From Bacteroidales bacterium (lineage in GTDB: Bacteria; Bacteroidota; Bacteroidia; Bacteroidales; GCA-2748055): a DNA stretch of 64,000 nucleotides. Where the stretch lies: the NCBI GenBank assembly GCA_046485075.1, contig JAWOHR010000088.1, positions 2,790 to 66,789 of the forward strand. Reading direction: 5' to 3'. The notes below the pieces were generated by a model. It saw nothing but the letters and a program-made list of their open reading frames with translations, was not told the origin of the DNA and ran no database searches. Below are positions 19,491-51,447 of this stretch, in pieces (position 1 is the first letter of the stretch; each line of letters begins with the position of its first letter). The position numbers and the translations under genes are program-made.

Positions 19491-22400
19491 CTACTGAGTC
19501 TTTATAAACTTACTCCTTCCAACCAGTTCTCCCGATTCAATGCGCCGGATGATGTACATGCCCCTGGTCAGATAGTGGATATCCAGGTTGAAGATCTGAT
19601 ATCCCGGCTGAGTCTCCATATTCAGAACCATCCTTCCACTCAGATCAAACACCTCAAGTACTCCCGGTTTTTCAGTCCTGCTTCCCAGGTTCACATACAG
19701 ATCATCTTTAGCCGGATTGGGGTAAACCTGCAGCTCTCTCAAATCCCTAAACCTGTCCAGTATACCGGTTGGGGGCGTTTTATAATTGACACCTGCCTGC
19801 AAAATCTCTTTTGTATTCCGATCCTGAACAAATGCAACCACCACGAGATCAGCGATATCCTCCACAAACGGCTCAAAAGTCCATTGGTTGGTCATACTCA
19901 CATTGTCCCCCTGGTTCCAGTTCTGACCCAGGAGCTTTCCTGCCGGTGTCGGGAGCATCTCCAATACCACATTCCTGAATGCACTGTCTCCATTTGTGCC
20001 CTCGTAGATTGTGACCAGGGATTCCATCACGACCACATAGAGTTGAATATATTCGGGGTAGCGATCAGATTTACATGTAACTGTGGTATAAGCCGTCAGA
20101 TCGCTTTCAGTCCAGTCCACTTCCACTTCAATTTCAAACGAAGGGACCTTGAGGGATAACAGATCGAGATCATCTGACCCGGGGATATTTTCAATACTTG
20201 AAAAATCGTACCGGTACAAGCCGTTGGACCCTCCATCGAGAACCGCATAGGGCACCAGTCCCACACCTAAATTACCGGCCCGGGTCGTAACCATACCCGG
20301 ATTATTCAGGTTCATGGGATCTTCCCCTGGATAAGCAGTATGATATTGAAGATCAATCACCTCAGAACGATTTGCTTTAGCATAGGCATCCACCTGGATA
20401 TCTGCTGAAAAGGAGTTCTGATCCGATGAATTTGTGAAGTGTTCTAAGACTGATAATTTCGTCTTTTCTGAAATCATCAGATTGTCAAATGCAAATCCCT
20501 GGTTGCCAATTCCCTGGGCTCCGGTAGTGGCTATTGCCAGGCGAAGGGTTGCTAAACGGCTACCCTTGAGTGCGCCCAGGTCATGAGAGGCTTCAACCCA
20601 ATCCGTATCCGGACTGAATACATCAAGGCTCCATCCCACCGGGCTTCCTCCCGGATGATTAAAGATATCAACGGAGTTATACCAGTTAATTCCTTTAGAG
20701 CTGGCACCAACAGTCTGCCATCCCTCTTTCCGGCTTTTCATGAACTGAAGAACCGAGCCATTCACATTGGGAACAAAACTCTTCATCATATCCAGCGCGA
20801 TCATCGGACGGTCCATATCACTGAAATCGAAACAGGGACTCTGAATCCAGGAGTGCTCCACATATCCGGAGCTATATCCCGATAATTCGGTATACCAGGA
20901 GTTCCCATTTCCATCGGGAGTATACCCTTCGAAATCGGGAGTACCCCAGACCCAGCTGGCATTCCCGTCCTCCGACTCAATGGTCCATCCTCCCTGGTCC
21001 AGGTCAAATACCTCGGAATATCCCTCAGCATTCAATTTGAAAGTCGGCCTTAATTCCACCATTTTAGAAACGGTATCAATGCAGGCACCCTGCGTTATGG
21101 CTTGAAGCCTTACCAGGTATGTGGATGCATTTGGAAACAGATATTCAAGGGTATCAGAATCTGAGATCACCTCATCGAGGATATCTCCGGATTCGGACAT
21201 GAAAATCCACTTCATCGATTCTATGGGTGTGAATCCTTCGGGGGTCAGGTTCACAAATTCAACACCCTGGTTATCCACAAAACAATCACTGATCCATGTA
21301 AAATCACTTTGGGGATTGCTGCTTAACAGGGCATCCACCTGAAATCCTGAAACACATCCGTCATAAGTGGTGGCCGTCAGTGATATGGACCATTCACCCG
21401 GATTCGGATAAAAGTGCTGCGGATCTATTTCACCACTGTAATTATCAGCCCCGCTCAATGGATCACCAAAATCCCACCGCCATGTTTCAACGGATAATTT
21501 CGAGGTGCTCTGGTTATTGAAATAGACCATTCCGCCGCCATCGGGGAGGCAGGAACTTCCTATTGTAAACTTAGCATCCGAGGCTGCATGAACAGTCAAC
21601 ACCAGTAAAGTAACCTTTTCACATCCGGTCTCAGATGATACTTTACAAGAGATGGTATTTTCACCTGCCGGAGCAACAGAAGGATCAAAAATAAAGCCGC
21701 TGCTTACATTTCCGGATACTCCGTTACCGGAGAAAACAGCAGCCGGATCGCTGGCAATGAGCTGGATTGCATCTTCATTCTGACAGAAAGTTGTTTTCCC
21801 CGATGGTGAAAGGATTTCAGGCTGGGCTAATTCTATTAACTCAAAATTTTCCCTGATATAGAGCTTTACGATATCAGTATAGGCATATTCAACCGTATAA
21901 ACACCGCCAGCCAGTTGCAAGGGATCGATGGTGGCTGTATTATCCCCATGATCGGTAAGCCCTGCTACAAAGTTGTTGAGAGGGTCCTTCAGGGTAAATG
22001 TACCCAGGACTCCGGCAACATTCGAGGCACTGACAAGGAAGGGAGCACTGTAATCACATACCTTCGGCCTGGGAATATAGAGGTCCCCATTGGCCCCCAG
22101 TACAAACACCAGCGCACTAGCAATGCTTGTACAACCGGTCGGGTTAACATAGGTATAGTATATGGTATGCGGTGAAAGAACGGTATCGGCAACAGCAGGA
22201 CTAAAATAACCGGTAATACTGTTGACACCGGGTCCTGAGAATACACCTCCCGGAATATTGGCTGTAAGCTTAAAGGGGGTTGCTTCCACACTATACCCTG
22301 ATTTCAGATTGGTGAAGTTCACGGGAGTTGAGGCATTCACTGAAACCTTCACGCTGCCACTTCCTGCATTTTCCACCCCATTCCGGTCCGTTACCTTGGG

Positions 22401-25400
22401 TATACTGTACCACGTGGTTTCCACGGGCGATACAAAAACACTAAAAGGGCTCGCATCAATATCCTCAATCAGCAATGTTGTATTTCCATCAAACAATTCG
22501 ATGGAGAATGGCTTCCTTCCAATTAAGTATACAACTAACTCGGCTTGCTCTCCTTCGCAGATCTCAGGCAGGGTCGCCAGATGAGTGAGTGGAAGCTGGG
22601 TATATACTTCCAGCTCATTCTCTTCAATCATACCAAAGGATGTACCGATGTTACCGGCCAAATCTCTAAGTACGATGCTCATTTCCAGTTCGCCGGGAGC
22701 AACCAGGTTATCGGTGGATGAAACTTCATAGGTAAGTGCATAGAGGCCATTTGAGATTTCCGTGAAGTTCACCCTATTCGAACTCAAGGGGATCCCGTTG
22801 ATCAGTGTGCCTGAAACAGCCGTATAGCCGGTACCATCGGCGGTGATGGTTGCCACCACCACGCCTCCCACCCCAACTTCCACATCCGGAACTTCAATCC
22901 TGGTTACCAGAGGGGCATGGGCATCGACCGACACCTGGGCAACATTCCCCAGAGCAGTATACGGATTACCAATGTTTCCTGATGGTTTGACCAAAATCAA
23001 GGATGCTACAAATGCTCCCGGTGCAACATCGTCATCCCCTTCCTCAACGGTGTAGGTCAGCCGGTACAACCCCGCCCCGGTCTCATTAAAAGTCATATTG
23101 GACTGTGTAACACTCATCCCGTTTACGGTTGAGGAAGAATTAATCGTGTAGAGAACCCCGTCGGTCTGGATATTGATCACAACCTGGCTCCCGATTTTAT
23201 AATTGCCGGCCACCAGATTCGCAAAATTGACCACAGGCCGTTTTGCATCCAGCAGATCATTATTCTGTGAAATGGGAGTAGTATAGGGCAAACTCGATGA
23301 AATTCCATCGGTAACAACCAGATTACCTACAGGAATATTCTGCAGCTTCTCATAGCTGTTCCCGCCTTCAACGATTACAAAATTCGCAAGATAAGTGGTG
23401 CTGTTGCTCCGAACCAAACTCGCCAGAGGATATCCTCCGATGTCACCTGAAGCCAGGGTGTAAACTGAATTACCATCATCTGAAACCACGATGGTTGCCG
23501 AGACAATATCTCCAATCTTCATGGTGGCATTTGGAATGGTCACATTCAGTATTTTCGGATCCTTAATTTTAACCGTTACATTATATTGACAGCTTTCTGA
23601 ATTCCCCGTAAGATCCTTCGCTACATAGGTGACCGTGGTAACTCCCAGCTGGAAGACCTTGGTTCCAACATAATTGATACCTGTTAAAGGCGAATTTCCT
23701 ATGGTTGCGCCACTCATCGACCAGGTTAATTCGGTCACTGCACAATTGTCAGTAAAAACGGGATTCACCGTAGTAAAGGAAGCTGACAGCAGATTTCTCT
23801 CGATTTCAATCACCTCATTAACCGGACACAAAGTGAATTGGGGAGCCTCAACATCTTCGACGGTAATGACCACGGTATTGGAGGCTGCGGAACCACATTC
23901 AACCGTAGAAATCCGTTGATATTCAGTGGTAAAAAGAGCTCCGGCCGGGGGATTATAGGTAAGACCGGTGGCCAGGGGTATATCAGTGAAGAGGGCGGGT
24001 GCAATCCTTGATTGCCACTGATAGCTCCAGTTGTTGCTACCCCCCGATGGTGATACACTGTTTATTATCACTGCAGGATCTCCCCCCGGGCATATTTCCT
24101 GATCCGCAGCAATGATCCCCCCGTTTAAGATAACTGAAATCGCTACCATGGCGACATTGGAGAAGACCTCTCCGGCATCATTAAAGGCCCTGATCCGGTA
24201 GTAATAGGTTTTATTGTTCCCGGTACCGGTATCTGTAAAGGATTCACTATCCGGGGCTAAAGTCTGGATATTCACAAAAACACCTGCGGGAAGGTCGGAG
24301 CGTTGAACAACAAAACCTGCCTCATTGTCAGACATGTCATCCCATTTCAGATCTACTGAACAGGTATTGTTTGCAGTTGCTATCAGATTGGTGGGATTGT
24401 CCGGGACTTTCAGCAGTGTAGCAGCACTACCCTCCAACATCCCTGAATTCCCTCCTGTATTATAGGCCATCACCTGGTAGAAATACTGTGTGTCATCGTT
24501 CAGTAAGGTGTGGTTGAAAGTGGTAATTCCCGCACCGGTAGTTCCAACAGAGGTAAAAGGCCCCCCCGATGAGAGAGAACTAAAGATTTCAAATCCAACC
24601 TCATTATCCGAATTGTCTGTCCAGTTCAAGCGGATGGCACTGGTTGTGATATTGGAAAAAGTCAGGTTGGTTGGTGCAGCAGGGACATTGGGCAACGTGG
24701 TTGCATTGCCACCGGCATATCCAGCCGATGGACCCCCTAAATTATAGGCATACACCCTGTAATGATAGGCCGTATTGTTGGTTAATCCGGTGTTGTTAAA
24801 AGTTGTCACCCCGGCCCCGGTGGTTCCCACTGAAGTGTAGGGTCCCCCGGCATTGAGAGAACGGAAGATCTCAAAACCATCCTCATTGTTGGAGATATCA
24901 GTCCAGTTCAGCTGGATGGAGTTATTGGTGATGGTTCCAAAGGTCAGGTTGGTTGGTGCAGCCGGGACATTGGGCAAAGTGGTTGCACTGCCACCGGCAT
25001 ATCCAGCCGATGGACCCCCTAAATTATAGGCATATACCCTGTAATGATAGGCCGTATTGTTGGTTAATCCAGTGTTATTAAAAGTTGCCACCCCGGCCCC
25101 GGTGGTTCCCACTGAAGTGTAGGGTCCCCCGGCATTGAGAGAACGGTAGATCTCAAAACCAACCTCGTTGGCCGAGTTATCAGTCCAGTTCAGCTGGATG
25201 GAATTATTGGTGATGGTTCCAAAGGTCAGGCCGGTTGGTGCAGCAGGGACATCGGGCAATGTGGTTGCATTGCCACTGGCATAGGTTGCTGACGGACCAT
25301 CCGCATTAAAGGCATACACCCTGTAGTAATAGGCTGTATTGCTGGTTAATCCGGGGCTGTTAAAAGTTTCCACCCCGGCCCCGGTGGTTCCCAATGAAGT

Positions 25401-25919
25401 GTAGGGTCCCCCGGAAAAAAGAGAACGAAAGATCTCAAAACCAACTTCGTTGCTTGAGTTATCACTCCAGTTCAGCTGGATGGAATTATTGGTAATGGTT
25501 CCAAAGGTCAGGCCGATAGGTGCAGCAGGTAAGTTGGGCAATGTGGTTGCACTGCCCCCCGCAAAGTCTGTTGAAGGACCATCCGTATTATTGGCGTACA
25601 CCCTGTAAAAATATTCTGTATTACTGGCTAATCCAGTGCTGTTAAAAGTTGTCACCCCGGCCAAGGTGGTTCCAACTGAAGTATACCCCCCCACTTCAGT
25701 GAGAGAACGGTAGATCTCAAAACCCTCCTCGTCGCCGGAGTTATCAGTCCAGTTCAGCTGGATGGAATTAATGGTGATGGTTCCAAAGGTCAGATCGGAT
25801 GGTGAATCAGGGACGGTAGGCAATATGGTTGCATTGCCACTGGCATAGGATGCTGATGCACCCCCAGCAAAAAGGACCGAGATCAGGAAAATTAAGCCCT
25901 GGTGTATATATTGCTTCAT
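19491..25919 (-). CDS. giant T9SS-secreted adhesin-like protein (6x FN3, HYR-like, Ig-like arrays, PKD-like, C-terminal sorting domain)
   Basis: 2142 aa. Signal peptide, six tandem 94-aa FN3 modules, HYR-like block (EAPQF..CP), PKD-like block (WRWDFGDP...), and a T9SS type-A CTD (VYPNPAKDDLYVNL...KFIKTQ). Confidence 0.85.
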   Translation of the reverse strand: MKQYIHQGLIFLISVLFAGGASASYASGNATILPTVPDSPSDLTFGTITINSIQLNWTDNSGDEEGFEIYRSLTEVGGYTSVGTTLAGVTTFNSTGLASNTEYFYRVYANNTDGPSTDFAGGSATTLPNLPAAPIGLTFGTITNNSIQLNWSDNSSNEVGFEIFRSLFSGGPYTSLGTTGAGVETFNSPGLTSNTAYYYRVYAFNADGPSATYASGNATTLPDVPAAPTGLTFGTITNNSIQLNWTDNSANEVGFEIYRSLNAGGPYTSVGTTGAGVATFNNTGLTNNTAYHYRVYAYNLGGPSAGYAGGSATTLPNVPAAPTNLTFGTITNNSIQLNWTDISNNEDGFEIFRSLNAGGPYTSVGTTGAGVTTFNNTGLTNNTAYHYRVYAYNLGGPSAGYAGGNATTLPNVPAAPTNLTFSNITTSAIRLNWTDNSDNEVGFEIFSSLSSGGPFTSVGTTGAGITTFNHTLLNDDTQYFYQVMAYNTGGNSGMLEGSAATLLKVPDNPTNLIATANNTCSVDLKWDDMSDNEAGFVVQRSDLPAGVFVNIQTLAPDSESFTDTGTGNNKTYYYRIRAFNDAGEVFSNVAMVAISVILNGGIIAADQEICPGGDPAVIINSVSPSGGSNNWSYQWQSRIAPALFTDIPLATGLTYNPPAGALFTTEYQRISTVECGSAASNTVVITVEDVEAPQFTLCPVNEVIEIERNLLSASFTTVNPVFTDNCAVTELTWSMSGATIGNSPLTGINYVGTKVFQLGVTTVTYVAKDLTGNSESCQYNVTVKIKDPKILNVTIPNATMKIGDIVSATIVVSDDGNSVYTLASGDIGGYPLASLVRSNSTTYLANFVIVEGGNSYEKLQNIPVGNLVVTDGISSSLPYTTPISQNNDLLDAKRPVVNFANLVAGNYKIGSQVVINIQTDGVLYTINSSSTVNGMSVTQSNMTFNETGAGLYRLTYTVEEGDDDVAPGAFVASLILVKPSGNIGNPYTALGNVAQVSVDAHAPLVTRIEVPDVEVGVGGVVVATITADGTGYTAVSGTLINGIPLSSNRVNFTEISNGLYALTYEVSSTDNLVAPGELEMSIVLRDLAGNIGTSFGMIEENELEVYTQLPLTHLATLPEICEGEQAELVVYLIGRKPFSIELFDGNTTLLIEDIDASPFSVFVSPVETTWYSIPKVTDRNGVENAGSGSVKVSVNASTPVNFTNLKSGYSVEATPFKLTANIPGGVFSGPGVNSITGYFSPAVADTVLSPHTIYYTYVNPTGCTSIASALVFVLGANGDLYIPRPKVCDYSAPFLVSASNVAGVLGTFTLKDPLNNFVAGLTDHGDNTATIDPLQLAGGVYTVEYAYTDIVKLYIRENFELIELAQPEILSPSGKTTFCQNEDAIQLIASDPAAVFSGNGVSGNVSSGFIFDPSVAPAGENTISCKVSSETGCEKVTLLVLTVHAASDAKFTIGSSCLPDGGGMVYFNNQSTSKLSVETWRWDFGDPLSGADNYSGEIDPQHFYPNPGEWSISLTATTYDGCVSGFQVDALLSSNPQSDFTWISDCFVDNQGVEFVNLTPEGFTPIESMKWIFMSESGDILDEVISDSDTLEYLFPNASTYLVRLQAITQGACIDTVSKMVELRPTFKLNAEGYSEVFDLDQGGWTIESEDGNASWVWGTPDFEGYTPDGNGNSWYTELSGYSSGYVEHSWIQSPCFDFSDMDRPMIALDMMKSFVPNVNGSVLQFMKSRKEGWQTVGASSKGINWYNSVDIFNHPGGSPVGWSLDVFSPDTDWVEASHDLGALKGSRLATLRLAIATTGAQGIGNQGFAFDNLMISEKTKLSVLEHFTNSSDQNSFSADIQVDAYAKANRSEVIDLQYHTAYPGEDPMNLNNPGMVTTRAGNLGVGLVPYAVLDGGSNGLYRYDFSSIENIPGSDDLDLLSLKVPSFEIEVEVDWTESDLTAYTTVTCKSDRYPEYIQLYVVVMESLVTIYEGTNGDSAFRNVVLEMLPTPAGKLLGQNWNQGDNVSMTNQWTFEPFVEDIADLVVVAFVQDRNTKEILQAGVNYKTPPTGILDRFRDLRELQVYPNPAKDDLYVNLGSRTEKPGVLEVFDLSGRMVLNMETQPGYQIFNLDIHYLTRGMYIIRRIESGELVGRSKFIKTQ
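24129..25823 (-). repeat. 282-bp coding tandem repeat, 6 copies (FN3 modules); copies 3-5 near-identical at DNA level
   Basis: The string gtcaggttggttggtgca recurs at 24661 and 24943, exactly 282 nt apart. Long runs are almost identical between 24661-24880 and 24943-25160. Flanking copies are more diverged. Confidence 0.9.
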
Positions 25920-26479: not shown

Positions 26480-27955
26480 TTACGCATATTTAAATTTAAG
26501 GTATAGATTAAGCACCCCTCCGGTTTTCAACACTTTTATCAATGTTTTTTTAAAGCCTTTATTGATGGGGACATTGAGCAATTCGGGCCATAGTTTATCG
26601 ATCACCTTCACGTAAACCTTGAAAGTCGGGATTTCTAAATACTTTGGGTGGACTGACAGGTACTGCATCACCAGATCTCTGGAATTGAATACATTAATGT
26701 CTTCCTGTGAGATATCCTTATCCAACTGAATCTGGTTTCCCCAGTTGGCTATTCTTTCTTCCCAATAAAACAGGTCTATCAAATTAATATTATTCTCTGG
26801 ACAGAACACTCCAATTTCTTTTATCCACTGATCATAATAGTCAATGGCAAAACTCCATTTACCAACCCTATTCTTTTTAGCCAGATTTTCACCAGTGACA
26901 GTTATCTTTCTCCCCATGAACCATTCACTCCCGGCAGTGGCGGTGTTGCCTGGCAAATTGACTTTATTGTTGAAATTAAGATAGTAATTATATATTAAGG
27001 GTAAATACTTTTCTGATCCGAATTCATTGTTCTCAAAATAGACTCTCCTGAAATCATCATCCACTTCTATGTATGGGTCCAATACATGAAATTTCAGGTC
27101 CAGATTACCAAGCAGCTTTTTTGGAATTGTAATGTCAATAAAATTATCATCAACATGGTTCTCTTTGTTGATGTAATAATAAACTCGTTCCGGATTGCTT
27201 TTTGTTGCTGCCATAAGTGTTCGTGAATCCTTACCAGCTGTAACGGGCAACATTACCTCATATCTGTGCATAATGCCTTCCATAAATCCCTTCACCATAT
27301 GTGCACAATTCGACGCTACTTCTTTCAAAGGTCTCTGATCGTCGATCCTGCAAGATGGCCAGTAGCGATACCTGGAAGAGGTTTTCACATCAAAGTAGTG
27401 ATTTGGCATTAATTGCCTGATACCATCATAAATGGTAGTATCTCCGATGTTAGCGTTGTTCTTCAGAATAAATTCCTGAGAGTTGTAGTAGTCTAATATT
27501 TCCGGATGATGAGTCTTCTTCATCTGGAGAACCTTTGCGAGGAGGTAAGACTGAGAGGAGAACCATGCATCACCGTTTCCAAGAGAGTAGTATATTTTTC
27601 TTGCAGCTGTGGCATCATGAACTAATTTAAGATCTTCTCTGCTTTTATAAATCAGGACAAACCTACCTGTATATTTTCCAAGTTTGTGTAGGATTCCGTC
27701 ATAATCTAAAACCAAAAGGTCAATTAGGATTTCAAAATTTGACTTCTGCGGACTCTCAAAGTCAAATAAATCACCTAATAGCCAGATTTTCGTTCCATTC
27801 ACCTCCGCTATTGTTATATGGAGATCCACGTGTGAATAAAGTCTATAGGTGTCATTTACGATATACTCCTCATTTAGAAATGGGCACTTCACAGATTTAG
27901 GTGCAAGTATATATTGATTCCGAAACCTAAGCCTTTCTATCTCTTCCTGTTTCAT
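26480..27955 (-). CDS. uncharacterised asparagine-synthetase-like / PP-loop protein, no Cys nucleophile (paralogue 1)
   Basis: The ORF track start at 27970 is TTG, so the ATG at 27955 (MKQEEIERLRFRNQY) is preferred because it aligns with the paralogue start. Motifs are GRFVLIY..EDLKLVHDATAARKIYY, EVMLPVTAGKDSR and KVNLPGNTATAGSEWF. It is paralogous to 39171..40640. Confidence 0.6.
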   Translation of the reverse strand: MKQEEIERLRFRNQYILAPKSVKCPFLNEEYIVNDTYRLYSHVDLHITIAEVNGTKIWLLGDLFDFESPQKSNFEILIDLLVLDYDGILHKLGKYTGRFVLIYKSREDLKLVHDATAARKIYYSLGNGDAWFSSQSYLLAKVLQMKKTHHPEILDYYNSQEFILKNNANIGDTTIYDGIRQLMPNHYFDVKTSSRYRYWPSCRIDDQRPLKEVASNCAHMVKGFMEGIMHRYEVMLPVTAGKDSRTLMAATKSNPERVYYYINKENHVDDNFIDITIPKKLLGNLDLKFHVLDPYIEVDDDFRRVYFENNEFGSEKYLPLIYNYYLNFNNKVNLPGNTATAGSEWFMGRKITVTGENLAKKNRVGKWSFAIDYYDQWIKEIGVFCPENNINLIDLFYWEERIANWGNQIQLDKDISQEDINVFNSRDLVMQYLSVHPKYLEIPTFKVYVKVIDKLWPELLNVPINKGFKKTLIKVLKTGGVLNLYLKFKYA

Positions 27956-28133: not shown

Positions 28134-31100
28134 TCATAGGACAATCAGTTTACGAATGGCAATAAAATTCCTGGTTAGAATCCGGCAGTAATATAGCCCA
28201 TTATTTAATCTTTGTCCAGATGCGTTTTTGCAATCCCATTCAAGGATAAGCGGTCCCGATCCGTTATGGTACTGCTCAAGCATTGTCACATATTTGCCAT
28301 TGCCATCGATCACCTCAATCCTAACATCGCCTGGTTCTTCCAGTGAAATATTAAAGAAGGCTTTGTCTGTTACCGGATTTGGATAGATGGTTAGTGCGTT
28401 GAAAAGGGGTAAATCATCCTCAAAATCTGTTGATAAATTTGACCTCAAAGGAGTTGGAGCAGGTAAAATAGTCCATACGATGTCAGCATCTGATACCCTA
28501 CCCCAGGATAGATTCGGACTAATACATGGGAAGGATACTGTATCAATCACTTCTCCCAAATAGCCAAACAATCCGATCTGCTCACCCGACTTGGATACTT
28601 TGAACCCAATATGCATGATCCCCTGATCCTCAGAATTATCTGCCCATAAAACAATGAAACCCCTACCCGGAATCGTTGTCGAATCGGGGTACTCAGATGA
28701 AATCCTGTAAACATATGGATCAGAAAGGCTGTCTGATAAAAATAATCCACCAATATCCAAAGGTTCGTTACCACTATTATACAATTCTATCCAATCATCA
28801 TATTCATTGGCTTCATCACAATAAATATTTAAATTATTTCCCATGACCTCATTGATCACCAGTTTTGAAAGATCGGGGTAATTATTAGGTCCGCCGGGAG
28901 TTGGAGGTATGGAAGTCCACCTCTCGGATTCCATGATTCTGCTGTAAGATGAGTTACTATACTGTTCTGAATAGGTAACTGAATCCAATATGGTCTCCAT
29001 GTCATAATGAATCAGTGCCAGTTGTTCTCCTTTCCTGCTAAGTTTAAAACTTACATGGTTGATCTCCTGGGCCTCTTCATTCTCCCCGTACAGGATATAG
29101 TAACCATTTGCAGGAATAGTAGTGAGTTGGGGAGAATGACTTGGGATTCGGTATTTCGCAGGATTTCCCAAACTGTCAGTAATGTACAATCCACCAAGGT
29201 TTACCGGGAAATCATTGGAGTTATAGAGTTCAATCCAGTCATTGAAGTTTCCATGGTCATCTTCTATGGAAGTATTGGAGGCCATAAACTCATTGAGGTG
29301 TATACCGGATATTACCGGCATATCGTTAAAGGCAGAGTATGTGGGTGGAAGATTTATCCAATCCCCTGTATTTGACAATCTGCTGTAAGAAAAATTCTTG
29401 AACTGATTTGGGAAGGTAACCGTATCTATATAAGTGGTGCCTTCAGGATCTACCAGGGCAAGTTGCTCGCCATCACCGCTCAGTTTGAATCCTAAATGAT
29501 GTACCCCCTGCTCTTGCTGATCATCGGCCCACAAAATCAAATATCCCTTTGGAGCAATGGTTGTTGAATCCGGGTATCCTGCCGGAATGCGGTACTTTAA
29601 CCGATCCCCGATGCTGTCTGTAATGAAGAAACCTCCAAGGTCTACTGCGAAATCGTTGTGGTTATATACCTCAATCCAATCGTCAAATTCGCCAAATTGA
29701 TCATGGTTTATCTCATTGCCTGATGCAACAATCTCAGATAGATACAAGTTCTCAGAGGGTCTGAGAATATTACAAGCGCCTGGGGATGCAGTCACGATTC
29801 TCAGGTCACAGCCACCATCCACAAAACGCCCCATAACCAGACCTGAAGGTAATTCGCCATAACTTAATGAATCGATAATTTGCTTGCCATCAGACTGGAT
29901 CAGACCTATTTGTTCTCCGTCATTACTCAATTTAAAATCCAGGTGAAGAACTCCCTGCTCCTCCTGGTTGTCAGCCCACAATACCATGTACCCTTTTGCG
30001 GGAATGGTGGTAGAATCAGAGTGGCAGGTTGGTATTCTGTAAACGGCCGGATTCGCCAAAGAATCAGTAATATACAGACCGCCTATATCAACTGGAAAGT
30101 CATTATTATTATAAATTTCAATCCAATCATCATATTCTCCAAATTCATCATGTACCGTTGACCTGTTACTGGCCATGAATTCATTGATAAACAAATTGTC
30201 AGTGAAATGAACCAGGTTTGAGCTGCCTGGAGTCGCATTAAGCCCCAATATTAGATTCTTTCCATCCGGGTATCGGCCCATGACATCGCCTCCAAATAAG
30301 TTGTTATAGCTAAGCGTGTCAAGATAGCCTGCACCCACCTGATAAACTCCTATTTGTTCCGTCTTGCTGTCCAACCTGAACCCCAGGTGCAGAGGGCCCT
30401 GTTCAGGTTGATTGTCAGCCCAGAGAATTTTAAAACCAAAAGGCGAAATCTTTGTGGATGGGTCACCGGTTGGAATCATATATTTCAGCTGATTTTGAAG
30501 ACTGTCTGTGAAAAATAATCCACCCAAATCAATCGTAACTGAAGTGGGATTGTAGATCTCGATCCAGTCATCCATCTCCTGATCTTCATCCGTGATACCA
30601 CAGCTGTTCTTAGCCAAAAACTCGTTGATTAGTAATTCCTTTCTCTCAAGTGGTTCATTCACCGCCATTGGAGTTGGCATCATATATTCGTATTGATTGG
30701 AATTCGACATGATACCGTAGGTCATATCTGATTCCAGGGAGGGAATGAGGAGGGAATCCACGTAGTGATAATCCTGGTCTATCTGTTGCACCAGTGTAAG
30801 AAGCTCCCCTTCCTTTTTAAGCTTGAAATTTGTGTGCAGCGGGCCCTGCCGATCATCATTGTCGCACCAGAGCAAGAGAAATCCTTTTGCCTTAACGGTG
30901 GTAAGCTCCGGAGTTCCATACGGAATCTGGTACTGGGTTTCATACCCGGCACTATCTGAAAGGTACCAACCTGCCAGGTCCACATCAAAATCATTGTCAT
31001 TATAGATTTCCACCCAGTCTTCCAACTGGCCAAAATCATCCCTGACATTGGTACTATTGGAAGCACAGATTTCATTTAAGTAGATTTTATTCTTAGGAGT

Positions 31101-33263
31101 ATCGGCTTTAAAAACAGCAGTGATCGCATCGTCGTTCGAAAGATTGAGAAATATGGTCTGATTACTTGAGGTGGAGGCCCCTTCCCAGTGAGAAAAAACA
31201 TACCCGCTTCGGGGTACAGCCACCAGCCGAAGGGGAACATTATTAAAAAAGGAGCCCGTAAAATTATTGGGGAGAGATACTTCACTGGCTTTCACAAAAC
31301 CCAGGGATGGATCATTCACATTGCAGGAAAGGTTGTACATTCCTGAAATGTTAAATTTTGCCATGAAGTGGCCCCTCACCACATCCGGATGATTCCTTGT
31401 AAAATCTGGCATCTTCTCTTCAGTCTGTGTCCAGAAGTAATCCGATTCAGGTCTTCCCCAACGCTCCATATGACGGCTCAGTTCGTCATTTATGTAAGCC
31501 CTGATGCTGTCATAAATCGGCGTTACGGTTTCCGGATTGAAGGTAGTATTGATGTGTCCCGCCATTCTTTGGATAAATTCATTTTTGAAATCCTTATTTT
31601 CCAATAACTCCGTGAATAGTCTTGTACTCTTATCATCCCTGGTTGCCCATTCCAGGCAGTTCCCGGTTCTTTGGTAAAGACCCCACCCAAAATCAGTATC
31701 ATACAAAACCCATCTCCATTTTCCTCCATCAGATTGAGGTCGCCAATATTTAACATTGTTATGCGGCCAGTCTTCATTTTGAAAATAAATATTGGCTAAA
31801 TAATAATTTAGAAACTCATTAATATCCATTTGAGTTGAGACATATTGATAATTCTCCTCAAGGTTAAGATCCTTATGGGTAACAAAATCCATAAGCGCCG
31901 TATAATGCTCAACCGATCCGCTGACCGACTCGCCCCACTCATAATTCATTCTTTCAAGCATATCTATCTCATCGGAATCAATCCCATAATTTGATGCTGG
32001 ATAGTACTCGTTGATTTTTTCTCTGATGTTCTGGATTCCCCAATACTCACCATTAATAAATATTACGGCAGGTTCATAAGCTTGCAGATCAATATCCATG
32101 CGGCCTTTGAGCAGAGTTTGCATAAATCCGTCTCTGAACATCGTTGCATAAGCGTCATTGCCGGAATTCCTTAAAACTATAGCTTTAAATTTATCCACAT
32201 CCTTCGATTGAAAGAACTTATAATCCAGACTGTTGTGACTATATTTATTCCTCGCATAGATGGCCAGGGATTTATACATGAACATCCTTGAGCATCCTCC
32301 ATAAATTTTTGTGCCAACAAGTTGATTTACTTCCTGCACTCCATCAGGACTAAAGTATTCAAAGTTAACCGGCCTCTCCCAATCCTGGTTCCAGTTCTGG
32401 GGATTCTCGAGGCAGTAACCCGCAATGCCGTTCGATCCGGTGACATAAATCCCATCATGACTTCCGAAGAAGTTTTTAGGATTAGTGGAGATCGACACAG
32501 TTGGCAAATTACTTCCTGCACCTAAGATATAGGTCTGTGTGTTTACCTTTCCTGGCAATTTACCTTCTTCAAAAAGACGTGCGCGTACAACAGTAGTCTC
32601 CAGCAACAGTATCGGTGATTCATAAATCAATGAAGATTGTACGGGCCACGATCCATCTGTTGTATATCTGATTAACCCTTCTGAGTCACCGGCATCAAGT
32701 TCCAGGATCTGAGCATCATCGTATATGCCAGCCTCTATGGAAAACCAGACCTCTGCAGGTAATAGAGTATCCTTTGTTGGATAGGTGTTGTTAACAGCTG
32801 ATGGAGTTGGTTCTGAATAATAGGCCCATTCGGAGATATCATCAACTTTCCTGCCATAGGATACATCAACGAATTGCTTCTGGTAGGTGACTGAATCCAC
32901 TAGCTGCCCATCAGGACTGAATAAAATGATCTTCCCCCCATCCATATATAACTTGATTTCCTCCGAAATCATGGTTCCTTCAGTTTGGAGCCAAACAATG
33001 CCATATTTACCAGGATTAATATACCCAAATTTTATCCTGGACATCTGCGGATTGGCCAGGTCGTTTGTCAGATAATGGCCGGCCAAATAAATAGTTTGAT
33101 TCCCCGAATTGTAAATTTCCACCCATTCCAGATAATTTCCACCGTAATCGAGGATGGTGTTAATATTCGATGCTTGAAATTCATTAATTCGTAGCTGTCC
33201 CTGACAAATCACAGACCAGAAAAACAGGCCGATTATGGTCCAGAGTTTGTCAAAAATTTTCAT
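28134..33263 (-). CDS. giant T9SS-secreted CotH kinase-family protein with seven lamin-tail (LTD) domains
   Basis: 1709 aa. Signal peptide, one N-terminal LTD (LRINEFQASN...WVEIYNSG), and a CotH core (LRNSGND, Y....ING.YWG.QN.REK, ED.WPHNNVKYWRP, RW.LYDTDFGWG). Six more LTDs follow (INEFMASN..DDWIE(I/L)YN...D(I/L)GG(L/F)(Y/F)(I/L)(T/S)DS), then a T9SS CTD (IYPNPVTDKAFFNI...RKLIVL). Confidence 0.85.
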   Translation of the reverse strand: MKIFDKLWTIIGLFFWSVICQGQLRINEFQASNINTILDYGGNYLEWVEIYNSGNQTIYLAGHYLTNDLANPQMSRIKFGYINPGKYGIVWLQTEGTMISEEIKLYMDGGKIILFSPDGQLVDSVTYQKQFVDVSYGRKVDDISEWAYYSEPTPSAVNNTYPTKDTLLPAEVWFSIEAGIYDDAQILELDAGDSEGLIRYTTDGSWPVQSSLIYESPILLLETTVVRARLFEEGKLPGKVNTQTYILGAGSNLPTVSISTNPKNFFGSHDGIYVTGSNGIAGYCLENPQNWNQDWERPVNFEYFSPDGVQEVNQLVGTKIYGGCSRMFMYKSLAIYARNKYSHNSLDYKFFQSKDVDKFKAIVLRNSGNDAYATMFRDGFMQTLLKGRMDIDLQAYEPAVIFINGEYWGIQNIREKINEYYPASNYGIDSDEIDMLERMNYEWGESVSGSVEHYTALMDFVTHKDLNLEENYQYVSTQMDINEFLNYYLANIYFQNEDWPHNNVKYWRPQSDGGKWRWVLYDTDFGWGLYQRTGNCLEWATRDDKSTRLFTELLENKDFKNEFIQRMAGHINTTFNPETVTPIYDSIRAYINDELSRHMERWGRPESDYFWTQTEEKMPDFTRNHPDVVRGHFMAKFNISGMYNLSCNVNDPSLGFVKASEVSLPNNFTGSFFNNVPLRLVAVPRSGYVFSHWEGASTSSNQTIFLNLSNDDAITAVFKADTPKNKIYLNEICASNSTNVRDDFGQLEDWVEIYNDNDFDVDLAGWYLSDSAGYETQYQIPYGTPELTTVKAKGFLLLWCDNDDRQGPLHTNFKLKKEGELLTLVQQIDQDYHYVDSLLIPSLESDMTYGIMSNSNQYEYMMPTPMAVNEPLERKELLINEFLAKNSCGITDEDQEMDDWIEIYNPTSVTIDLGGLFFTDSLQNQLKYMIPTGDPSTKISPFGFKILWADNQPEQGPLHLGFRLDSKTEQIGVYQVGAGYLDTLSYNNLFGGDVMGRYPDGKNLILGLNATPGSSNLVHFTDNLFINEFMASNRSTVHDEFGEYDDWIEIYNNNDFPVDIGGLYITDSLANPAVYRIPTCHSDSTTIPAKGYMVLWADNQEEQGVLHLDFKLSNDGEQIGLIQSDGKQIIDSLSYGELPSGLVMGRFVDGGCDLRIVTASPGACNILRPSENLYLSEIVASGNEINHDQFGEFDDWIEVYNHNDFAVDLGGFFITDSIGDRLKYRIPAGYPDSTTIAPKGYLILWADDQQEQGVHHLGFKLSGDGEQLALVDPEGTTYIDTVTFPNQFKNFSYSRLSNTGDWINLPPTYSAFNDMPVISGIHLNEFMASNTSIEDDHGNFNDWIELYNSNDFPVNLGGLYITDSLGNPAKYRIPSHSPQLTTIPANGYYILYGENEEAQEINHVSFKLSRKGEQLALIHYDMETILDSVTYSEQYSNSSYSRIMESERWTSIPPTPGGPNNYPDLSKLVINEVMGNNLNIYCDEANEYDDWIELYNSGNEPLDIGGLFLSDSLSDPYVYRISSEYPDSTTIPGRGFIVLWADNSEDQGIMHIGFKVSKSGEQIGLFGYLGEVIDTVSFPCISPNLSWGRVSDADIVWTILPAPTPLRSNLSTDFEDDLPLFNALTIYPNPVTDKAFFNISLEEPGDVRIEVIDGNGKYVTMLEQYHNGSGPLILEWDCKNASGQRLNNGLYYCRILTRNFIAIRKLIVL
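28440..31095 (-). repeat. array of six LTD-coding modules, period about 440-450 nt (diverged at DNA level)
   Basis: INE(F/V/I) module starts are seen near 31090, 30640, 30190, 29745, 29300 and 28865. Coordinates are approximate. Confidence 0.75.
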
Positions 33264-36028: not shown

Positions 36029-36817
36029 ATGACAACTATGCCTGTTTTGGATCAAGGAGCTCACAGGATTAATCAGGAAACGAAATATGTAGAAACACTG
36101 GGATTCCGTGTTTTTTCAGATGACCTGAATAAGATCTCATTCAATGGAGAGAAGGGAAGGGTGGTCAATACCATTAGTCCTAATTCCTATGGAATATCGA
36201 CCAAAGATCCTGAGTTTAAAAATGCGCTTCAGAGTTCTGATTATTTGACTTTGGATGGAGTCTATTTTGCATTTTCCTCCCTTCTTTTACAAGGAAAGAA
36301 TATCAAAGCCAACCAGGGACCTGATGTCTTCTATCATTTTATGAGATGCCTGGATAATTCAAAGGGTAAGGCTTTTTTCCTGGGTTCTACCCCGGATACA
36401 CTTCACAAAATCAAGTTAAGGGCCTCAAATGAATACCCTGGAATAGAAGTGGAGGTCCACTCCCCCCCTTTTAAACCCGAATTTACAAAAGATGAAGATA
36501 ATGAGATGATCAAGAGGATCAATTCATTTGAACCCGATGTAGTTTTCATTGGGATGACATGCCCGAAGCAAGAGAAATGGGCCAGCAAAAACAGGCAAAA
36601 GATTAATTCGGGTCTCATCATTGCCATAGGGAACGTATTCGATTGGTATGCAGGAACCCAAAAAGCAATTCATCCCTTCTGGTTCAAAATTAAGTTGGGT
36701 TGGCTTGTCCGGATTTTCCTAAGACCTGAAATTTTCAGAAGGAACATTGGCAATCAGATGAAATTCTTCCTGGATGTCATTCTGATCTTTCTAAGACTGA
36801 AAAAAGCAACACCCTAA
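36029..36817 (+). CDS. WecB/TagA/CpsF-family (GT26) glycosyltransferase
   Basis: 262 aa. Family blocks V.TISPNSYG, LTLDGVYF, F.LG.TP..L, VFIGM.CPKQE.W, GNVFDW.AG. Confidence 0.8.
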   Translation: MTTMPVLDQGAHRINQETKYVETLGFRVFSDDLNKISFNGEKGRVVNTISPNSYGISTKDPEFKNALQSSDYLTLDGVYFAFSSLLLQGKNIKANQGPDVFYHFMRCLDNSKGKAFFLGSTPDTLHKIKLRASNEYPGIEVEVHSPPFKPEFTKDEDNEMIKRINSFEPDVVFIGMTCPKQEKWASKNRQKINSGLIIAIGNVFDWYAGTQKAIHPFWFKIKLGWLVRIFLRPEIFRRNIGNQMKFFLDVILIFLRLKKATP

Positions 36818-36918
36818 AAGCCTTTTTGCCGTTAAAACTGCGTGAAACATTAATTCCTGAAATCCGTAAGAAACTACAGTAGAATCATAAACAAATGTAT
36901 TTAAATTGAATTTTGCAT

Positions 36919-37848
36919 ATGTCTAAAAAAATTTCCTTAGTGATACCGGTCCACAACAGACTTGAATATACAAAAAGCTGTCTGTCAATACTTAAAGATC
37001 AGGAAAAGACTTCATTTTTTACAAAGAACCAGATCTATATTATCCTCGTAAATGATGGTTCCACAGATGAAACGAATGAGTGGGTTTCTAGTAACTATCC
37101 AGAAGTAATCATTTTAGAAGGTGATGGCAATCTTTGGTATAGCGGAAGTCTGAATAAGGGATTCCGCCATGCACTCTATCAACTCGGATGTGATTTTGTC
37201 TTGATTTGGGAAAATGATATTTTTCCCGGGCCAGGCTACTTTAATAACCTGCAAGCCCTGGTTGAAAGTTGGGATGGAAATAGCATCATTACTTCAAAGC
37301 TATATTATAAATCCCAACCGAATCTGATCTTTGGACTGGGGGGGACATTTAATAAAAAAACCGGGCAAAAGTCTTTGATCGGTTGGCGTGAGGAGGATGG
37401 CCCCAAGTTTAATCAAATAATCGAATTAGATTGGTTTCTGGGCCATATGGCCTTGATTCACAAAGATATTATTGCCAGGATTGGCTTGATGGATGAAAAG
37501 AACTTTCCCCAGTATCATGCCGACATCGACTATTCATTAAGGGCCACTGAACACGGGTTTAAAAATATTGTGTATCCCGAATTAAAACTAATGAATGACA
37601 CGGGGACCACCGGGATTCATCAAGTGAAAAACAAAACCATTAAACAGTTTTTTGAAAGTTTTACTTCGATACGCTCGAATAATAACATCCGAAAGGATAT
37701 CATATTCCTAAGAATTCATACCAAGGGCCTCTTGCCCTACCTCTATCTTTTTAAAAGATATTTAATTTATACAGGCAGTTTCGTGAAGTGGAAAACACTT
37801 GGCTATTTTGGGGTAAAGAGGAAAAATGAAAACCTGCTGGTAGATTAG
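36919..37848 (+). CDS. family 2 glycosyltransferase
   Basis: ISLVIPVHNRLEYTK.CL.S, ILVNDGSTDET. The ORF track start at 36913 is TTG, so the ATG at 36919 is preferred. Confidence 0.8.
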   Translation: MSKKISLVIPVHNRLEYTKSCLSILKDQEKTSFFTKNQIYIILVNDGSTDETNEWVSSNYPEVIILEGDGNLWYSGSLNKGFRHALYQLGCDFVLIWENDIFPGPGYFNNLQALVESWDGNSIITSKLYYKSQPNLIFGLGGTFNKKTGQKSLIGWREEDGPKFNQIIELDWFLGHMALIHKDIIARIGLMDEKNFPQYHADIDYSLRATEHGFKNIVYPELKLMNDTGTTGIHQVKNKTIKQFFESFTSIRSNNNIRKDIIFLRIHTKGLLPYLYLFKRYLIYTGSFVKWKTLGYFGVKRKNENLLVD

Positions 37849-38993
37849 TTACTCTGGGAAAGCAGCTTAATTACTGATTCAGAGAAGACTTTTACCATTG
37901 CATTCACATTGCTTTTTGTCTCAATGATTTCTCTGCATTTAGCAGACATCTTTCTAATCTCAGCCGGGCTGGTATTAATTCTCCTTTCCATAGCCTCGGT
38001 TAAGCTTTGAAGATCATCCTTGCTAAATCTAAAACCTGTTTCAGACTCAATGACCAGGTCATTTTCAGTCCCGTCGGCCTCGCTAACTATGCAAGTTTTT
38101 TTCCAAAACATAGCCTGATTTAATCCCAATCCTCCCACCCCGGGTAATACATAACAATCTGATGCTGCGAAATAGGGATCAACCCCTTCGATTATCCTTC
38201 CGAGATAGATAATGTTTGGGTCATTTATATCTTCCATCATCTGTTGTATATCCTCCCTAAGAGGTCCGTCTCCAATGATAATGAGTTTGATCTTATATTT
38301 CTTTTGTCTCAGAGCTTTAAAAGCGTTTAACAGCAGGTCAACTCTTTTCTCGGGTATTAATCCTCCCACATAGATAAAGGTGGTATGCTGATTTAATTCT
38401 AGCTCCTGAATTATTTTTCTGGCTTCTGCCAGGACCTTATTCTCTTCCGCAATCAAATGATCAATCTCTATACCGTTATAGGCTGTTATGATATTCTGGG
38501 GATCAACACCCATTGATTCTACATAATCACTTGCCGTGGTGCTATAAGTAAGATGCAGGTCCCCTTTTTTAAAGAAAGCCGAAACCAGAAGGTTCTTAAA
38601 TGATAACAGCATTCCTTTTGCCAATCCAGGTTCCCAGCCACAGGTCCAGACAATAATTCGCTTTCCTTCCCTTTTGGCCCATGATATTGCTCTTCTGTTT
38701 GAAATATCACCCGTAATTCCTTGTAATATAAGCAAATCCGGATTAAACTCTTTAATTGAAGTAAATAGACCTTTGTTATAGACTATTTTAAAAGGTCCGG
38801 GTCTATAAATGGTTTCTCTAAATCCTTCCTGATCAAAGTTTGTCTCTTTATCATAGTTGGGTCTTCCATCCTCTTTTTGACTTACCCCATGAAAGATTTT
38901 CCATTGATAGTCTTCTCCCATATTGAAAAGCTTTTCATAGAATGAGATTCGATAGGGTTGTAACATGGGGGTTATAAGTGCTATCTTCTTCAT
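37845..38993 (-). CDS. family 4 (GT-B) glycosyltransferase
   Basis: 382 aa. C-terminal GT-B block with YVGGLIPEKRVDLL, IIGDGP.RE and the E..G(L/G).. motif (PGVGGLGLNQAM). It converges on the GT2 gene with a 4-nt overlap. Confidence 0.8.
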   Translation of the reverse strand: MKKIALITPMLQPYRISFYEKLFNMGEDYQWKIFHGVSQKEDGRPNYDKETNFDQEGFRETIYRPGPFKIVYNKGLFTSIKEFNPDLLILQGITGDISNRRAISWAKREGKRIIVWTCGWEPGLAKGMLLSFKNLLVSAFFKKGDLHLTYSTTASDYVESMGVDPQNIITAYNGIEIDHLIAEENKVLAEARKIIQELELNQHTTFIYVGGLIPEKRVDLLLNAFKALRQKKYKIKLIIIGDGPLREDIQQMMEDINDPNIIYLGRIIEGVDPYFAASDCYVLPGVGGLGLNQAMFWKKTCIVSEADGTENDLVIESETGFRFSKDDLQSLTEAMERRINTSPAEIRKMSAKCREIIETKSNVNAMVKVFSESVIKLLSQSN

Positions 38994-46087: not shown

Positions 46088-46100
46088 TCGTTATCGCATT

Positions 46101-46955: not shown

Positions 46956-46961
46956 TAGACT

Positions 46962-47972: not shown

Positions 47973-48001
47973 TATCTTCTGATTTAATTGATTTTTAAGG
48001 A

Positions 48002-49006: not shown

Positions 49007-49012
49007 ATGATA

Positions 49013-50245: not shown

Positions 50246-50273
50246 ATCAATAAGAGCGGAATCTAAGACACCT

Positions 50274-51437: not shown

Positions 51438-51447
51438 ACCGGATAGA

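Follow-up and report, generated by a model that had tools for sequence, protein, structure and literature searches.

Paralogous asparagine synthetase-like proteins without a glutaminase nucleophile in a Bacteroidales glycan locus: candidate amide ligases

Members of the asparagine synthetase B (AsnB) fold that lack the glutaminase cysteine, such as beta-lactam synthetase (BLS), CarA and the lasso cyclases, use ATP to form amides or lactams; amidotransferases of the WbpS/WbqG type keep the cysteine. WbpS (Pseudomonas aeruginosa O6; PGN_1234 in Porphyromonas gingivalis) and WbqG (Escherichia coli O121) are AsnB-type enzymes of glycan loci that amidate uronic acids, converting sugar carboxylates to amides, and in P. 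gingivalis this takes place on the sugar that anchors type IX secretion system (T9SS) cargo (PMC7468200). Here we analyse two paralogous genes, copy A (protein P0001) and copy B (P0019), on a 64,000-nucleotide stretch from a Bacteroidales bacterium (GenBank assembly GCA_046485075.1, contig JAWOHR010000088.1, positions 2,790 to 66,789 of the forward strand), hereafter the window. On balance we favour the view that both genes encode ATP-dependent, glutamine-independent amide ligases that decorate a polysaccharide intermediate.

Amide decorations (uronamides, aminoacyl-uronates and N-aminoacyl amino sugars) are common in published polysaccharide structures and shape charge, antigenicity and susceptibility to phages or lyases; the makers of many of them are unassigned. 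The family to which the two proteins belong provides concrete candidates for such enzymes on bacterial surface polysaccharides. It is not a surprise in kind. The family is sizeable and unannotated, its proposed part in decorating glycans is open to test, and its PP-loop site is curiously remodelled.

Two paralogues with an asparagine synthetase fold

Copy A (26480..27955, minus strand) encodes 491 residues from its ATG and copy B (39171..40640, plus strand) encodes 489; a tblastn search finds exactly these two family copies in the window. The proteins are 51% identical over their full length (an end-to-end alignment with a single gap, E = 0, 251 of 489 positions identical and 73% positives). 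Copy A probably starts at the ATG at 27955, as the aligned methionine is the first residue in 63 of 68 homologues, and a longer start at a TTG (27970) is possible. No transmembrane segment or signal peptide is predicted in either copy, so both proteins are soluble and cytoplasmic. Residue numbers below are those of copy A unless stated.

The PP-loop block EVMLPVTAGKDSR lies at residues 233-245 of copy A (27221..27259, minus strand) and 232-244 of copy B (39864..39902, plus strand). Its 13 codons differ at 7 nucleotides across 6 codons (GTA/GTT, TTG/CTC, CCC/CCT, GCT/GCA, GGT/GGA and CGA/CGC, copy A first), and every change is synonymous. Over the whole alignment the same codon is used at merely 111 of the 251 identical residues, indicating that the duplication is old and that the protein sequence has been maintained by selection. 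These data reproduce exactly what an earlier note, made from the DNA letters alone, had reported, namely two full-length paralogues of about 490 residues with matching motifs and a purely synonymous set of PP-loop differences, and they uphold its reading that both copies are under purifying selection.

Sequence searches with individual models do not reach the superfamily. Pfam gives no match for the copies even at E <= 10, and NCBIfam gives only weak ones (about 20 bits against cut-offs of 267-300, covering approximately residues 94-249), to models for the albusnodin/ikarugamycin macrolactam cyclase and for asparagine synthase. For the asparagine synthase model TIGR01536, whose cut-off is 267.1 bits, the scores are 20.6 and 14.3, and for the macrolactam/lasso cyclase model the score is 21.6 bits against 300. 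Searching the PDB sequences with a single protein and with both family profiles (phmmer, hmmsearch) likewise yields no significant match to an AsnB-fold protein. Scanned individually against hidden Markov models (HMMs) at E <= 0.01, the 68 sequences that make up the subfamily set nonetheless carry recurrent sub-threshold matches to the macrolactam cyclase (41 of 68), asn_synth (29 of 68, best E 1e-8) and lasso cyclase (17 of 68) models. None of the 68 matches eps_aminotran_1, the WbpS model, at this threshold, and two give weak, marginal matches to the WbuX model TIGR03573.

The gap to the AsnB fold is bridged only by structure comparison and by profile-profile comparison. An AlphaFold2 model built from the 68-sequence alignment has a mean predicted local distance difference test score (pLDDT) of 92 and a predicted TM-score (pTM) of 0.92. 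Compared with the PDB by Foldseek, it matches over its full length TsnB9 (7ylz), CarA (1q15/1q19), BLS (1jgt/1mbz), AsnB (1ct9) and human asparagine synthetase (ASNS; 6gq3), with E values of 5.7e-14 to 1.2e-9, TM-scores of 0.52-0.63 and 487-545 aligned columns. Single-domain matches are far weaker, at about 1e-5 to 1e-3 for the N-terminal domains of PurF and GlmS and about 1e-3 for NAD synthetases over the C-terminal domain. For the profile comparison, a wide-family set of 130 sequences at 25-50% identity was set against a reference profile of E. coli K-12 AsnB with human ASNS and TsnB9 segments taken from the PDB alignments. This hhalign comparison gives 93.6% probability and an E value of 2e-7 over 240 columns, and against AsnB alone the wide-family profile is colinear over 322 columns.

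The alignment pairs LLGDLFD with VNGEIYN, GRFVLI with GMFAFA, HDATAARKIYY with RDHLGIIPLYM, VTAGKDSR with LSGGLDSS and NLPGN with LSGEG (family first, AsnB second), and all residue equivalences to AsnB and BLS given here derive from sequence-profile alignment. In the copies themselves these segments read GRFVLIY (copy A) or GRYVIIY (copy B) at residue 97 and HDATAARKIYY or HDPTATRKIFY at residue 113. The motif KVNLPGN, aligned with MVLSGEG of AsnB, is common to both (residues 331-337, 26945..26965, minus strand, in copy A; residues 330-336, 40158..40178, plus strand, in copy B). By predicted fold, profile homology and PP-loop, copies A and B are therefore members of the AsnB superfamily. The earlier note's assignment to the AsnB/BLS/lasso-cyclase superfamily is supported by the full-length Foldseek matches, the hhalign result and the sub-threshold HMM matches, and the three landmarks on which it was based recur among the hhalign pairings. 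It had named a profile-profile search and structure prediction with Foldseek as checks, and both find significant similarity to the AsnB fold, the Foldseek comparison also to BLS and CarA.

A degenerate glutaminase domain

The N-terminal domain (approximately residues 1-205; 27341..27955, minus strand, in copy A) is modelled as a degenerate class-II, or N-terminal nucleophile (Ntn), glutaminase-like fold. Both proteins begin with MK, and in the AlphaFold2 model a 13-residue N-terminal helix segment precedes strand 1 (helix at residues 3-9, strand at 15-18). The strand-1 motif Q-[FY]-[IL]-L-[GSTA], which is QYILA in copy A, resembles C-S-I-F-G of AsnB. Its glutamine, Q14, is found in 124 of the 130 wide-family sequences and probably occupies the position of the cysteine nucleophile. 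The residues that bind glutamine and form the oxyanion site are also replaced in the hhalign alignment, AsnB R49, N74 and D98 corresponding to D44, L60 and N73. Judged by sequence, glutamine hydrolysis is excluded on several counts, because there is no N-terminal nucleophile and the glutamine-site residues have been replaced.

The absence of the Ntn cysteine reported in the earlier note is thus borne out by the MK start, the helix ahead of strand 1 and the glutamine at the cysteine position. Its description of the proteins as Cys-less holds for the nucleophile at position 2 and not for the chains as a whole, since copy A has cysteines at positions 24, 202, 217 and 385 and copy B at 24 and 124. 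Cys24, within a CPF motif, was considered as an Ntn nucleophile exposed by removal of a propeptide, as in Bacillus subtilis PurF. This candidate was rejected: the cysteine is present in 64 of the 68 subfamily members but in only 13 of the 130 wide-family sequences, as against 124 of 130 for Q14.

A remodelled synthetase site

The C-terminal domain (approximately residues 206-491; 26483..27340, minus strand, in copy A) corresponds to the PP-loop ATP-pyrophosphatase, or synthetase, domain, and no other feature of the family is as strongly conserved as its PP-loop. The loop's consensus [TS][AS]GxD[ST]R is almost invariant among the 130 wide-family sequences (T 117 and S 13; A 103, S 18 and G 9; G 130; x; D 121 and E 9; S 115 and T 15; R 129), and the variant of the two copies, T-A-G-K-D-S, aligns with S-G-G-L-D-S of AsnB. 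Other near-invariant positions of the wide family are D274 (128 of 130), E399 (129 of 130), N424 (119 of 130), W398 and W405. Across the 68 subfamily members 33 columns are invariant, clustered in the motifs of the synthetase domain, and they include M235, P237, T239, G241, D243, R245, N333, P335, E399, R401, N404, K413, Q417 and N424. By motif spacing we take WEER..N and E..NPFNSR to resemble YDCARAN and GVEARVPFLD of AsnB, in which case E399 may match AsnB D384 and BLS E382. The catalytic residues of BLS are a Tyr-Glu dyad (Y348 and E382) and a catalytic lysine (K443).

The subfamily of the window departs from the wide family in and around this site. In the wide family the loop aligned with S-G-E-G-S-D-E of AsnB reads G-N-x-S-E-I-x-R, with E340 in 99 and R/K343 in 116 of the 130 sequences, and R440 is present in 111. 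In the window's subfamily the loop reads P-G-N-x-A-[SAT]-[AS]-G; position 340 is S, A or T and never acidic, position 343 is aromatic and position 440 is I, L or N. Copy A has P-G-N-T-A-T and copy B P-G-N-M-A-S. In copy A, TAT at 338-340 thus replaces G-S-D/E of AsnB and the second acidic residue is absent. The same subfamily carries two lysines that are variable in the wide family, K242 inside the PP-loop (60 of 68) and K413 (68 of 68).

These changes occur together. Cross-tabulation of the 130 wide-family sequences gives 93 with E340 and R343 and neither lysine, and every sequence with K242 has K413 but neither E340 nor R343 (7 of 7). Four sequences combine E340 and R343 with K413 and represent evolutionary intermediates. 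The coordinated residue swap, taken with the 33 invariant columns, looks like the re-engineering of a working site rather than decay, and K242 and K413 may functionally replace E340, R343 and R440. If so, the exchange of a glutamate and two arginines for lysines would point to a different handling of phosphate or metal. The lysine-for-acid swap in this subfamily is a natural experiment in the rebuilding of PP-loop adenylation sites.

Comparison with described enzymes

BLS and CarA are among the best structural matches (E 5.7e-14 to 3.4e-11, TM-score 0.55-0.60, at about 12% identity). They share with the copies the two-domain AsnB fold, the absence of the cysteine nucleophile, the PP-loop and a length of about 490-510 residues. 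They differ in that the position of BLS Tyr348 is Asn337 here and the second acidic ligand is absent from the window proteins. Their genes lie in beta-lactam (clavam/carbapenem) clusters, whereas the copies lie amid glycan and T9SS-cargo genes. The lasso and macrolactam cyclases (NF033535, NF033561), which give the best sub-threshold HMM matches, are also AsnB-fold amide formers without the cysteine; no partner genes for ribosomally synthesized and post-translationally modified peptides (RiPPs) were seen among the annotated neighbours. The copies are therefore not assignable to BLS/CarA, on account of context and the tyrosine position, or to the lasso cyclases, given the missing RiPP partners and scores far below cut-off.

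AsnB and human ASNS (TIGR01536) have the same fold as the copies (Foldseek E 2.5e-11 to 1.2e-9) and a colinear profile alignment. In the copies, however, Cys-1 is absent, the three glutamine-site residues are exchanged as described above, E348 is N337, and D351/E352 is lost. The top structural match is the hydroxyamidotransferase TsnB9 (E 5.7e-14, TMq 0.61-0.63), an AsnB-fold enzyme of a secondary-metabolite pathway whose nucleophile, to which the adenylated carboxylate is coupled, is not ammonia. Unlike the copies, it keeps an MCG N terminus and the canonical SGGLDSS and SGEAADE motifs. WbpS and WbqG resemble the copies as AsnB-superfamily enzymes in glycan loci, but they are glutamine-dependent AsnB-type amidotransferases and the copies are predicted to be glutamine-independent. 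On the cysteine, the glutamine-site residues, the acidic loop and the unmet HMM cut-offs, the sequences of the copies place them outside the glutamine-dependent AsnB/WbpS group.

Two further types of enzyme act on glycans by other routes. The WbuX/PseA type (TIGR03573) has a single PP-loop domain and HisH/HisF-like partners, whereas the copies have two domains and no such partners were found among their neighbours. The Cj1438-type ATP-grasp amidoligases of the Campylobacter capsule form amides on a capsular glucuronate in an ATP-dependent reaction (PMC12409886, PMC11800379). Their fold is unrelated and they work through an acyl phosphate; genes of the present family often have ATP-grasp genes beside them.

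Family size and distribution

In a word-indexed search 202 clusters were recovered; they are unnamed or labelled "hypothetical", in a few cases "asparagine synthetase B", and Pfam assigns no domain to any of them. When 1.84 billion representatives were searched exhaustively with an HMM, the result was 4,202 clusters at E <= 1e-3, 2,818 at E <= 1e-10 and 1,174 at E <= 1e-30, all counted at 50% identity. The close subfamily is found in metagenome-assembled genomes of uncultured Bacteroidales/Bacteroidota (39 loci, one bin being labelled Anaerolineales), where a genome often has 2-4 copies and a single locus as many as three. The wide family extends beyond the Bacteroidota, for example to a Marispirochaeta "hypothetical protein" (WP_319562202.1).

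No Pfam or NCBIfam model reaches threshold for the family. Literature searches on the family and on Cys-less AsnB-like glycan enzymes found no description and brought up only WbpS/WbqG. The earlier note had recognised no characterised close relative, in agreement with the Pfam, PDB-sequence and literature searches. The family thus forms a large branch of a known superfamily, uncatalogued and of family rank, and the active site in the window's subfamily is an unusual variant. Existing annotations call its members "hypothetical protein" or make them, in error, a glutamine-hydrolysing asparagine synthetase, a mis-annotation that a family model built from the alignments would correct.

Some wide-family representatives have additional domains. 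In P0222 (920 residues) the family domain (6-481) is fused to a glycosyltransferase family 2 (GT2) domain (492-691), P0214 (693 residues) has a C-terminal PAS domain, and P0246 (649 residues) has an unassigned 140-residue N-terminal extension. Two loci contain incomplete family genes, one split across two open reading frames (L020, 9478-10974) and one present only as a 115-residue fragment (L044, 10004-10372). Each may be a pseudogene or an assembly error, and both genomes also have intact copies.

Genomic context of the copies and their relatives

Copy B sits in a Wzx/Wzy-type locus at about 36-56 kb of the window, and copy A is flanked on both sides by giant T9SS cargo genes on the same strand. 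The glycan-locus setting described in the earlier note is confirmed by the presence of WecG, GT2, two family 4 glycosyltransferases (GT4), a deacetylase, Wzx, a Wzy-like protein and an MBOAT/AlgX pair.

To place this setting we use 45 fetched loci of relatives, 28 non-redundant loci of at least 12 kb, and an unbiased Pfam census of the immediate flanks, two genes to either side of the family gene (131 proteins). The commonest large neighbours in the fetched loci are homologues of the window's cargo protein with polysaccharide lyase 14 (PL14) and LamG domains (16 of 45). Homologues of the GT2, GT4 and GFO/MocA proteins each occur in 10 of 45, and those of the epimerase, the deacetylase, an uncharacterised 284-residue protein (unk284) and the Wzy-like protein in 7-9. 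Of the 28 long loci, 20 contain a homologue of a glycan gene of the window and 15 a T9SS cargo homologue. The flank census is headed by GT4 (10), ATP-grasp (7) and T9SS C-terminal domain (6) proteins, with 12 giant cargo proteins left out, followed by GFO/MocA, GT2 and hexapeptide acyltransferase proteins (4 each) and deacetylases (3).

Particular arrangements recur. A divergent GT4 gene directly upstream of the family gene, as at copy B, is also seen in L003/L004, L005 and L006. In L003, L005, L006 and L025 a divergent GT4 gene with a hexapeptide acyltransferase gene, the family gene and a convergent ATP-grasp gene form a micro-synteny in which the ATP-grasp protein is of the PRK12767 "carbamoyl-phosphate-synthase-like" type; the window lacks this acyltransferase and this ATP-grasp gene. 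A distant member in a 4.95-Mb genome lies in an operon of the order GT4, unknown, Wzx, family gene, GT2, and the Marispirochaeta gene in one of the order GT2, hexapeptide, Wzx, GT4, Wzz, family gene, Wza. In L050 the family gene is accompanied by a Wzz kinase, Wza, an initiating transferase and a GFO/MocA protein, and on its other side by a YDG/MBG cargo protein and a UDP-sugar dehydrogenase (Pfam assignments).

Adjacency to T9SS cargo is specific to the Bacteroidales subfamily, and the association with glycan loci across the family is frequent but not universal. Where the earlier note asked if homologues always sit beside glycan or T9SS cargo genes, the link therefore stands for 20 of the 28 long loci, fails in L049, and in its T9SS part is limited to one lineage.

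Proposed function and alternatives

We base the amide-ligase reading on the fold, the conserved PP-loop, the lost glutaminase, the cytoplasmic location and the coupling to glycan genes, and from these we infer ATP use, amide-bond chemistry and the identity of the acyl and amine partners. The C-terminal domain would bind ATP through T-A-G-K-D-S-R, adenylate a carboxylate and release pyrophosphate, after which an amine not derived from glutamine would attack the acyl-AMP to give the amide. The substrate would be an intermediate of the Wzx/Wzy-type polysaccharide that the neighbouring genes produce, in the form of a nucleotide sugar or of a repeat unit linked to undecaprenyl pyrophosphate. The outcome could be a sugar carboxylate that is amidated or a free sugar amine that is N-acylated with a small acid or amino acid, and the two paralogues would probably differ in the amide decoration that they install or in the residue that they modify. 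AsnB-type enzymes that amidate uronic acids in glycan loci are exemplified by WbpS/WbqG (PMC7468200). A broader claim, that the phylum-spanning family as a whole consists of glutamine-independent AsnB-fold glycan amide ligases, which would place amides of amino acids, amines or acyl groups on Wzx/Wzy polysaccharides, and that in the window's subfamily the adenylation site has been re-engineered from E340/R343/R440 to K242/K413, we put forward only tentatively.

Several observations weigh against the amide-ligase reading. The residue missing from the window's subfamily at the position of AsnB D351/E352 is an acid that serves as the second Mg ligand in AsnB and BLS, and N337 stands at the position of AsnB E348 and BLS Y348. 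Because of these two differences in the aligned sequences, the adenylation competence of the subfamily is not guaranteed, and the missing acid weakens a simple claim that the mechanism is the same as in AsnB. As regards the ATP and Mg ligands, which the earlier note had singled out, the PP-loop is retained and this acid is not. For the catalytic lysine (AsnB K449, BLS K443) no equivalent with firm conservation can be placed, K/R469 being only about 80% conserved; over the last ~140 residues low-stringency hhalign against AsnB is untrustworthy, and ungapped motif matching gives conflicting registers (N465 versus K469). The context also has exceptions. About 8 of the 28 long loci have no homologue of the window's glycan genes. 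In L001 the neighbours are limited to sugar oxidoreductases and a polysaccharide utilization locus, and the two family copies of L049 (the same as L029; 1817-11515) are surrounded by housekeeping genes, outside any glycan locus. Of the non-redundant loci examined, just three (L013 and L038 by homology, L050 by Pfam) have a UDP-sugar dehydrogenase within 10 kb.

A family copy in L049 is divergent from an Asp/Glu racemase gene and close to genes for a sodium:dicarboxylate symporter and a DUF1846 protein, an arrangement that may hint at an amino-acid substrate or be a coincidence.

Within the amide-ligase reading, uronate amidation is one of two comparably likely chemistries, the other being N-acylation of an amino sugar. 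In the first, a uronamide or uronyl-amide synthase would act on a Ugd-derived uronic acid of the repeat unit, adenylating it at C6 and coupling it to free ammonia, an amine or an amino acid. This sub-case, which is the role suggested in the earlier note, is possible but well short of even chances. The window does contain ugd (5276..6604), confirming the earlier note's statement that the gene is encoded nearby on the chromosome; a UDP-sugar dehydrogenase gene adjoins the family gene in L050, and ugd homologues are present in L013 and L038. The most frequent cargo neighbours, those of the 16 loci counted above, are PL14-like and so belong to a family of lyases for uronate polymers, and the window has an MBOAT/AlgX-like pair, typical of acidic polysaccharides. 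WbpS/WbqG again provide the precedent (PMC7468200). Set against this, a distance of about 20-30 kb separates either copy from ugd, which belongs to an rml/ugd block of its own, a UDP-sugar dehydrogenase is close by in no more than the three loci named, and the 68 subfamily members lack any match to the WbpS model.

In the second chemistry the enzymes would adenylate a small carboxylic or amino acid and transfer it to a free sugar amine, the source of which would be the N-deacetylase of the locus or a route through a 3-dehydrogenase and an aminotransferase. The reaction would parallel, with ATP, the VimE/VimA step in the Porphyromonas linking sugar. We rate this a shade lower. Polysacc_deac_1 or YdjC deacetylases and GFO/MocA proteins resembling UDP-GlcNAc 3-dehydrogenase recur beside family genes, such amine-generating enzymes being neighbours at least as often as UDP-sugar dehydrogenases, the adjoining ATP-grasp ligases and hexapeptide acyltransferases suggest heavy amide and acyl decoration, and several paralogues per locus would fit several acyl groups. 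AsnB-fold enzymes are not known to N-acylate sugar amines. The support for this chemistry is purely contextual, and the window locus showed no DegT-type aminotransferase. The Bacteroidota are known to contain aminoacyl-amino sugars (PMC7468200).

It is unlikely that the window's subfamily is instead a pseudoenzyme, a nucleotide-binding scaffold or a regulator of a glycan assembly complex in which the PP-loop is kept for binding and not for catalysis. Such a role would explain why E340, R343 and R440, conserved in the wide family, have been lost and why an asparagine stands at the position of AsnB E348, and the PAS domain of one wide-family member would suit a regulator. The invariant columns clustered in synthetase-domain motifs argue the other way, as does the covariation of the losses with the gain of fixed K242 and K413, which resembles remodelling and has surviving intermediates.

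Other PP-loop sugar chemistry, that is, conversion of an acetamido to an acetamidino group as by WbuX, PseA and LfnA, or formation of an intramolecular lactam, is improbable. PP-loop enzymes in general adenylate carbonyl oxygens, and two of the 68 members do match the WbuX model; those matches are marginal, the two-domain AsnB fold is not that of WbuX, and HisH/HisF-like partners were not found among the annotated neighbours. Least credible of all is a lasso-peptide or other RiPP macrolactam cyclase, suggested by the best NCBIfam matches and rejected on genomic context, the scores being about 20 bits against cut-offs of 300 and the annotated neighbours being glycan genes with no B-protein (transglutaminase-like protease), no PqqD/RiPP recognition element and no precursor peptide.

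Neighbouring genes in the window

Upstream of copy B are annotated genes for a WecG/TagA-family glycosyltransferase (36029..36817, plus strand) and a GT2 protein (36913..37848, plus strand), followed by the GT4 gene (37845..38993, minus strand), which is divergent from copy B across a 177-bp spacer. Convergent with copy B is a T9SS cargo gene encoding a PL14-like domain, LamG and two fn3 domains (40663..43548, minus strand); its product may act as a lyase on the polysaccharide of the locus itself or remodel it. Beyond it lie a polysaccharide N-deacetylase gene (43864..44874, plus strand; PgaB/IcaB-like at sub-threshold score), with homologues in 7 family loci, and the rest of the Wzx/Wzy locus (44912..52887, minus strand), comprising a GT4 protein, unk284, a GFO/MocA protein, an epimerase, a Wzy-like protein with 10 transmembrane segments, a GT2-like protein and the Wzx flippase. 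The best model for the GFO/MocA protein is UDP-GlcNAc 3-dehydrogenase. The soluble unk284 protein (46101..46955, minus strand) is present in 7 family loci, usually with an adjoining GFO/MocA gene. The Wzy-like protein (49013..50245, minus strand; 410 residues, about 10 predicted transmembrane segments) has homologues in 7 family loci and is probably the Wzy polymerase of the locus. Neither of these two proteins has a Pfam, NCBIfam or PDB match. Past Wzx the locus continues with a GT2 protein, an AlgX-like SGNH protein and an MBOAT protein; the MBOAT (AlgI-like) gene adjoins the AlgX-like gene (53845-56385, minus strand), and the pair resembles the machinery for alginate-type O-acetylation of polysaccharides.

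Directly upstream of copy A is a T9SS cargo gene (28134..33263, minus strand) for a 1709-residue protein with a CotH-kinase domain, seven lamin-tail domains (LTDs) and a chitobiase C-terminal domain, and downstream is one for a 2142-residue fn3/PKD cargo protein (19491..25919, minus strand). A second CotH protein, of 619 residues, is encoded 14 kb from the first (12079-13938, minus strand), and homologues of the CotH/LTD cargo also lie near family genes in L012, L020 and L044. The ugd gene stands with rml genes at 5-10 kb of the window. Just upstream of the cargo and glycan region, beside a PIF1/UvrD-like helicase gene, is a gene for a B12-binding radical SAM protein with a DUF4070 domain (14508-15989, plus strand).

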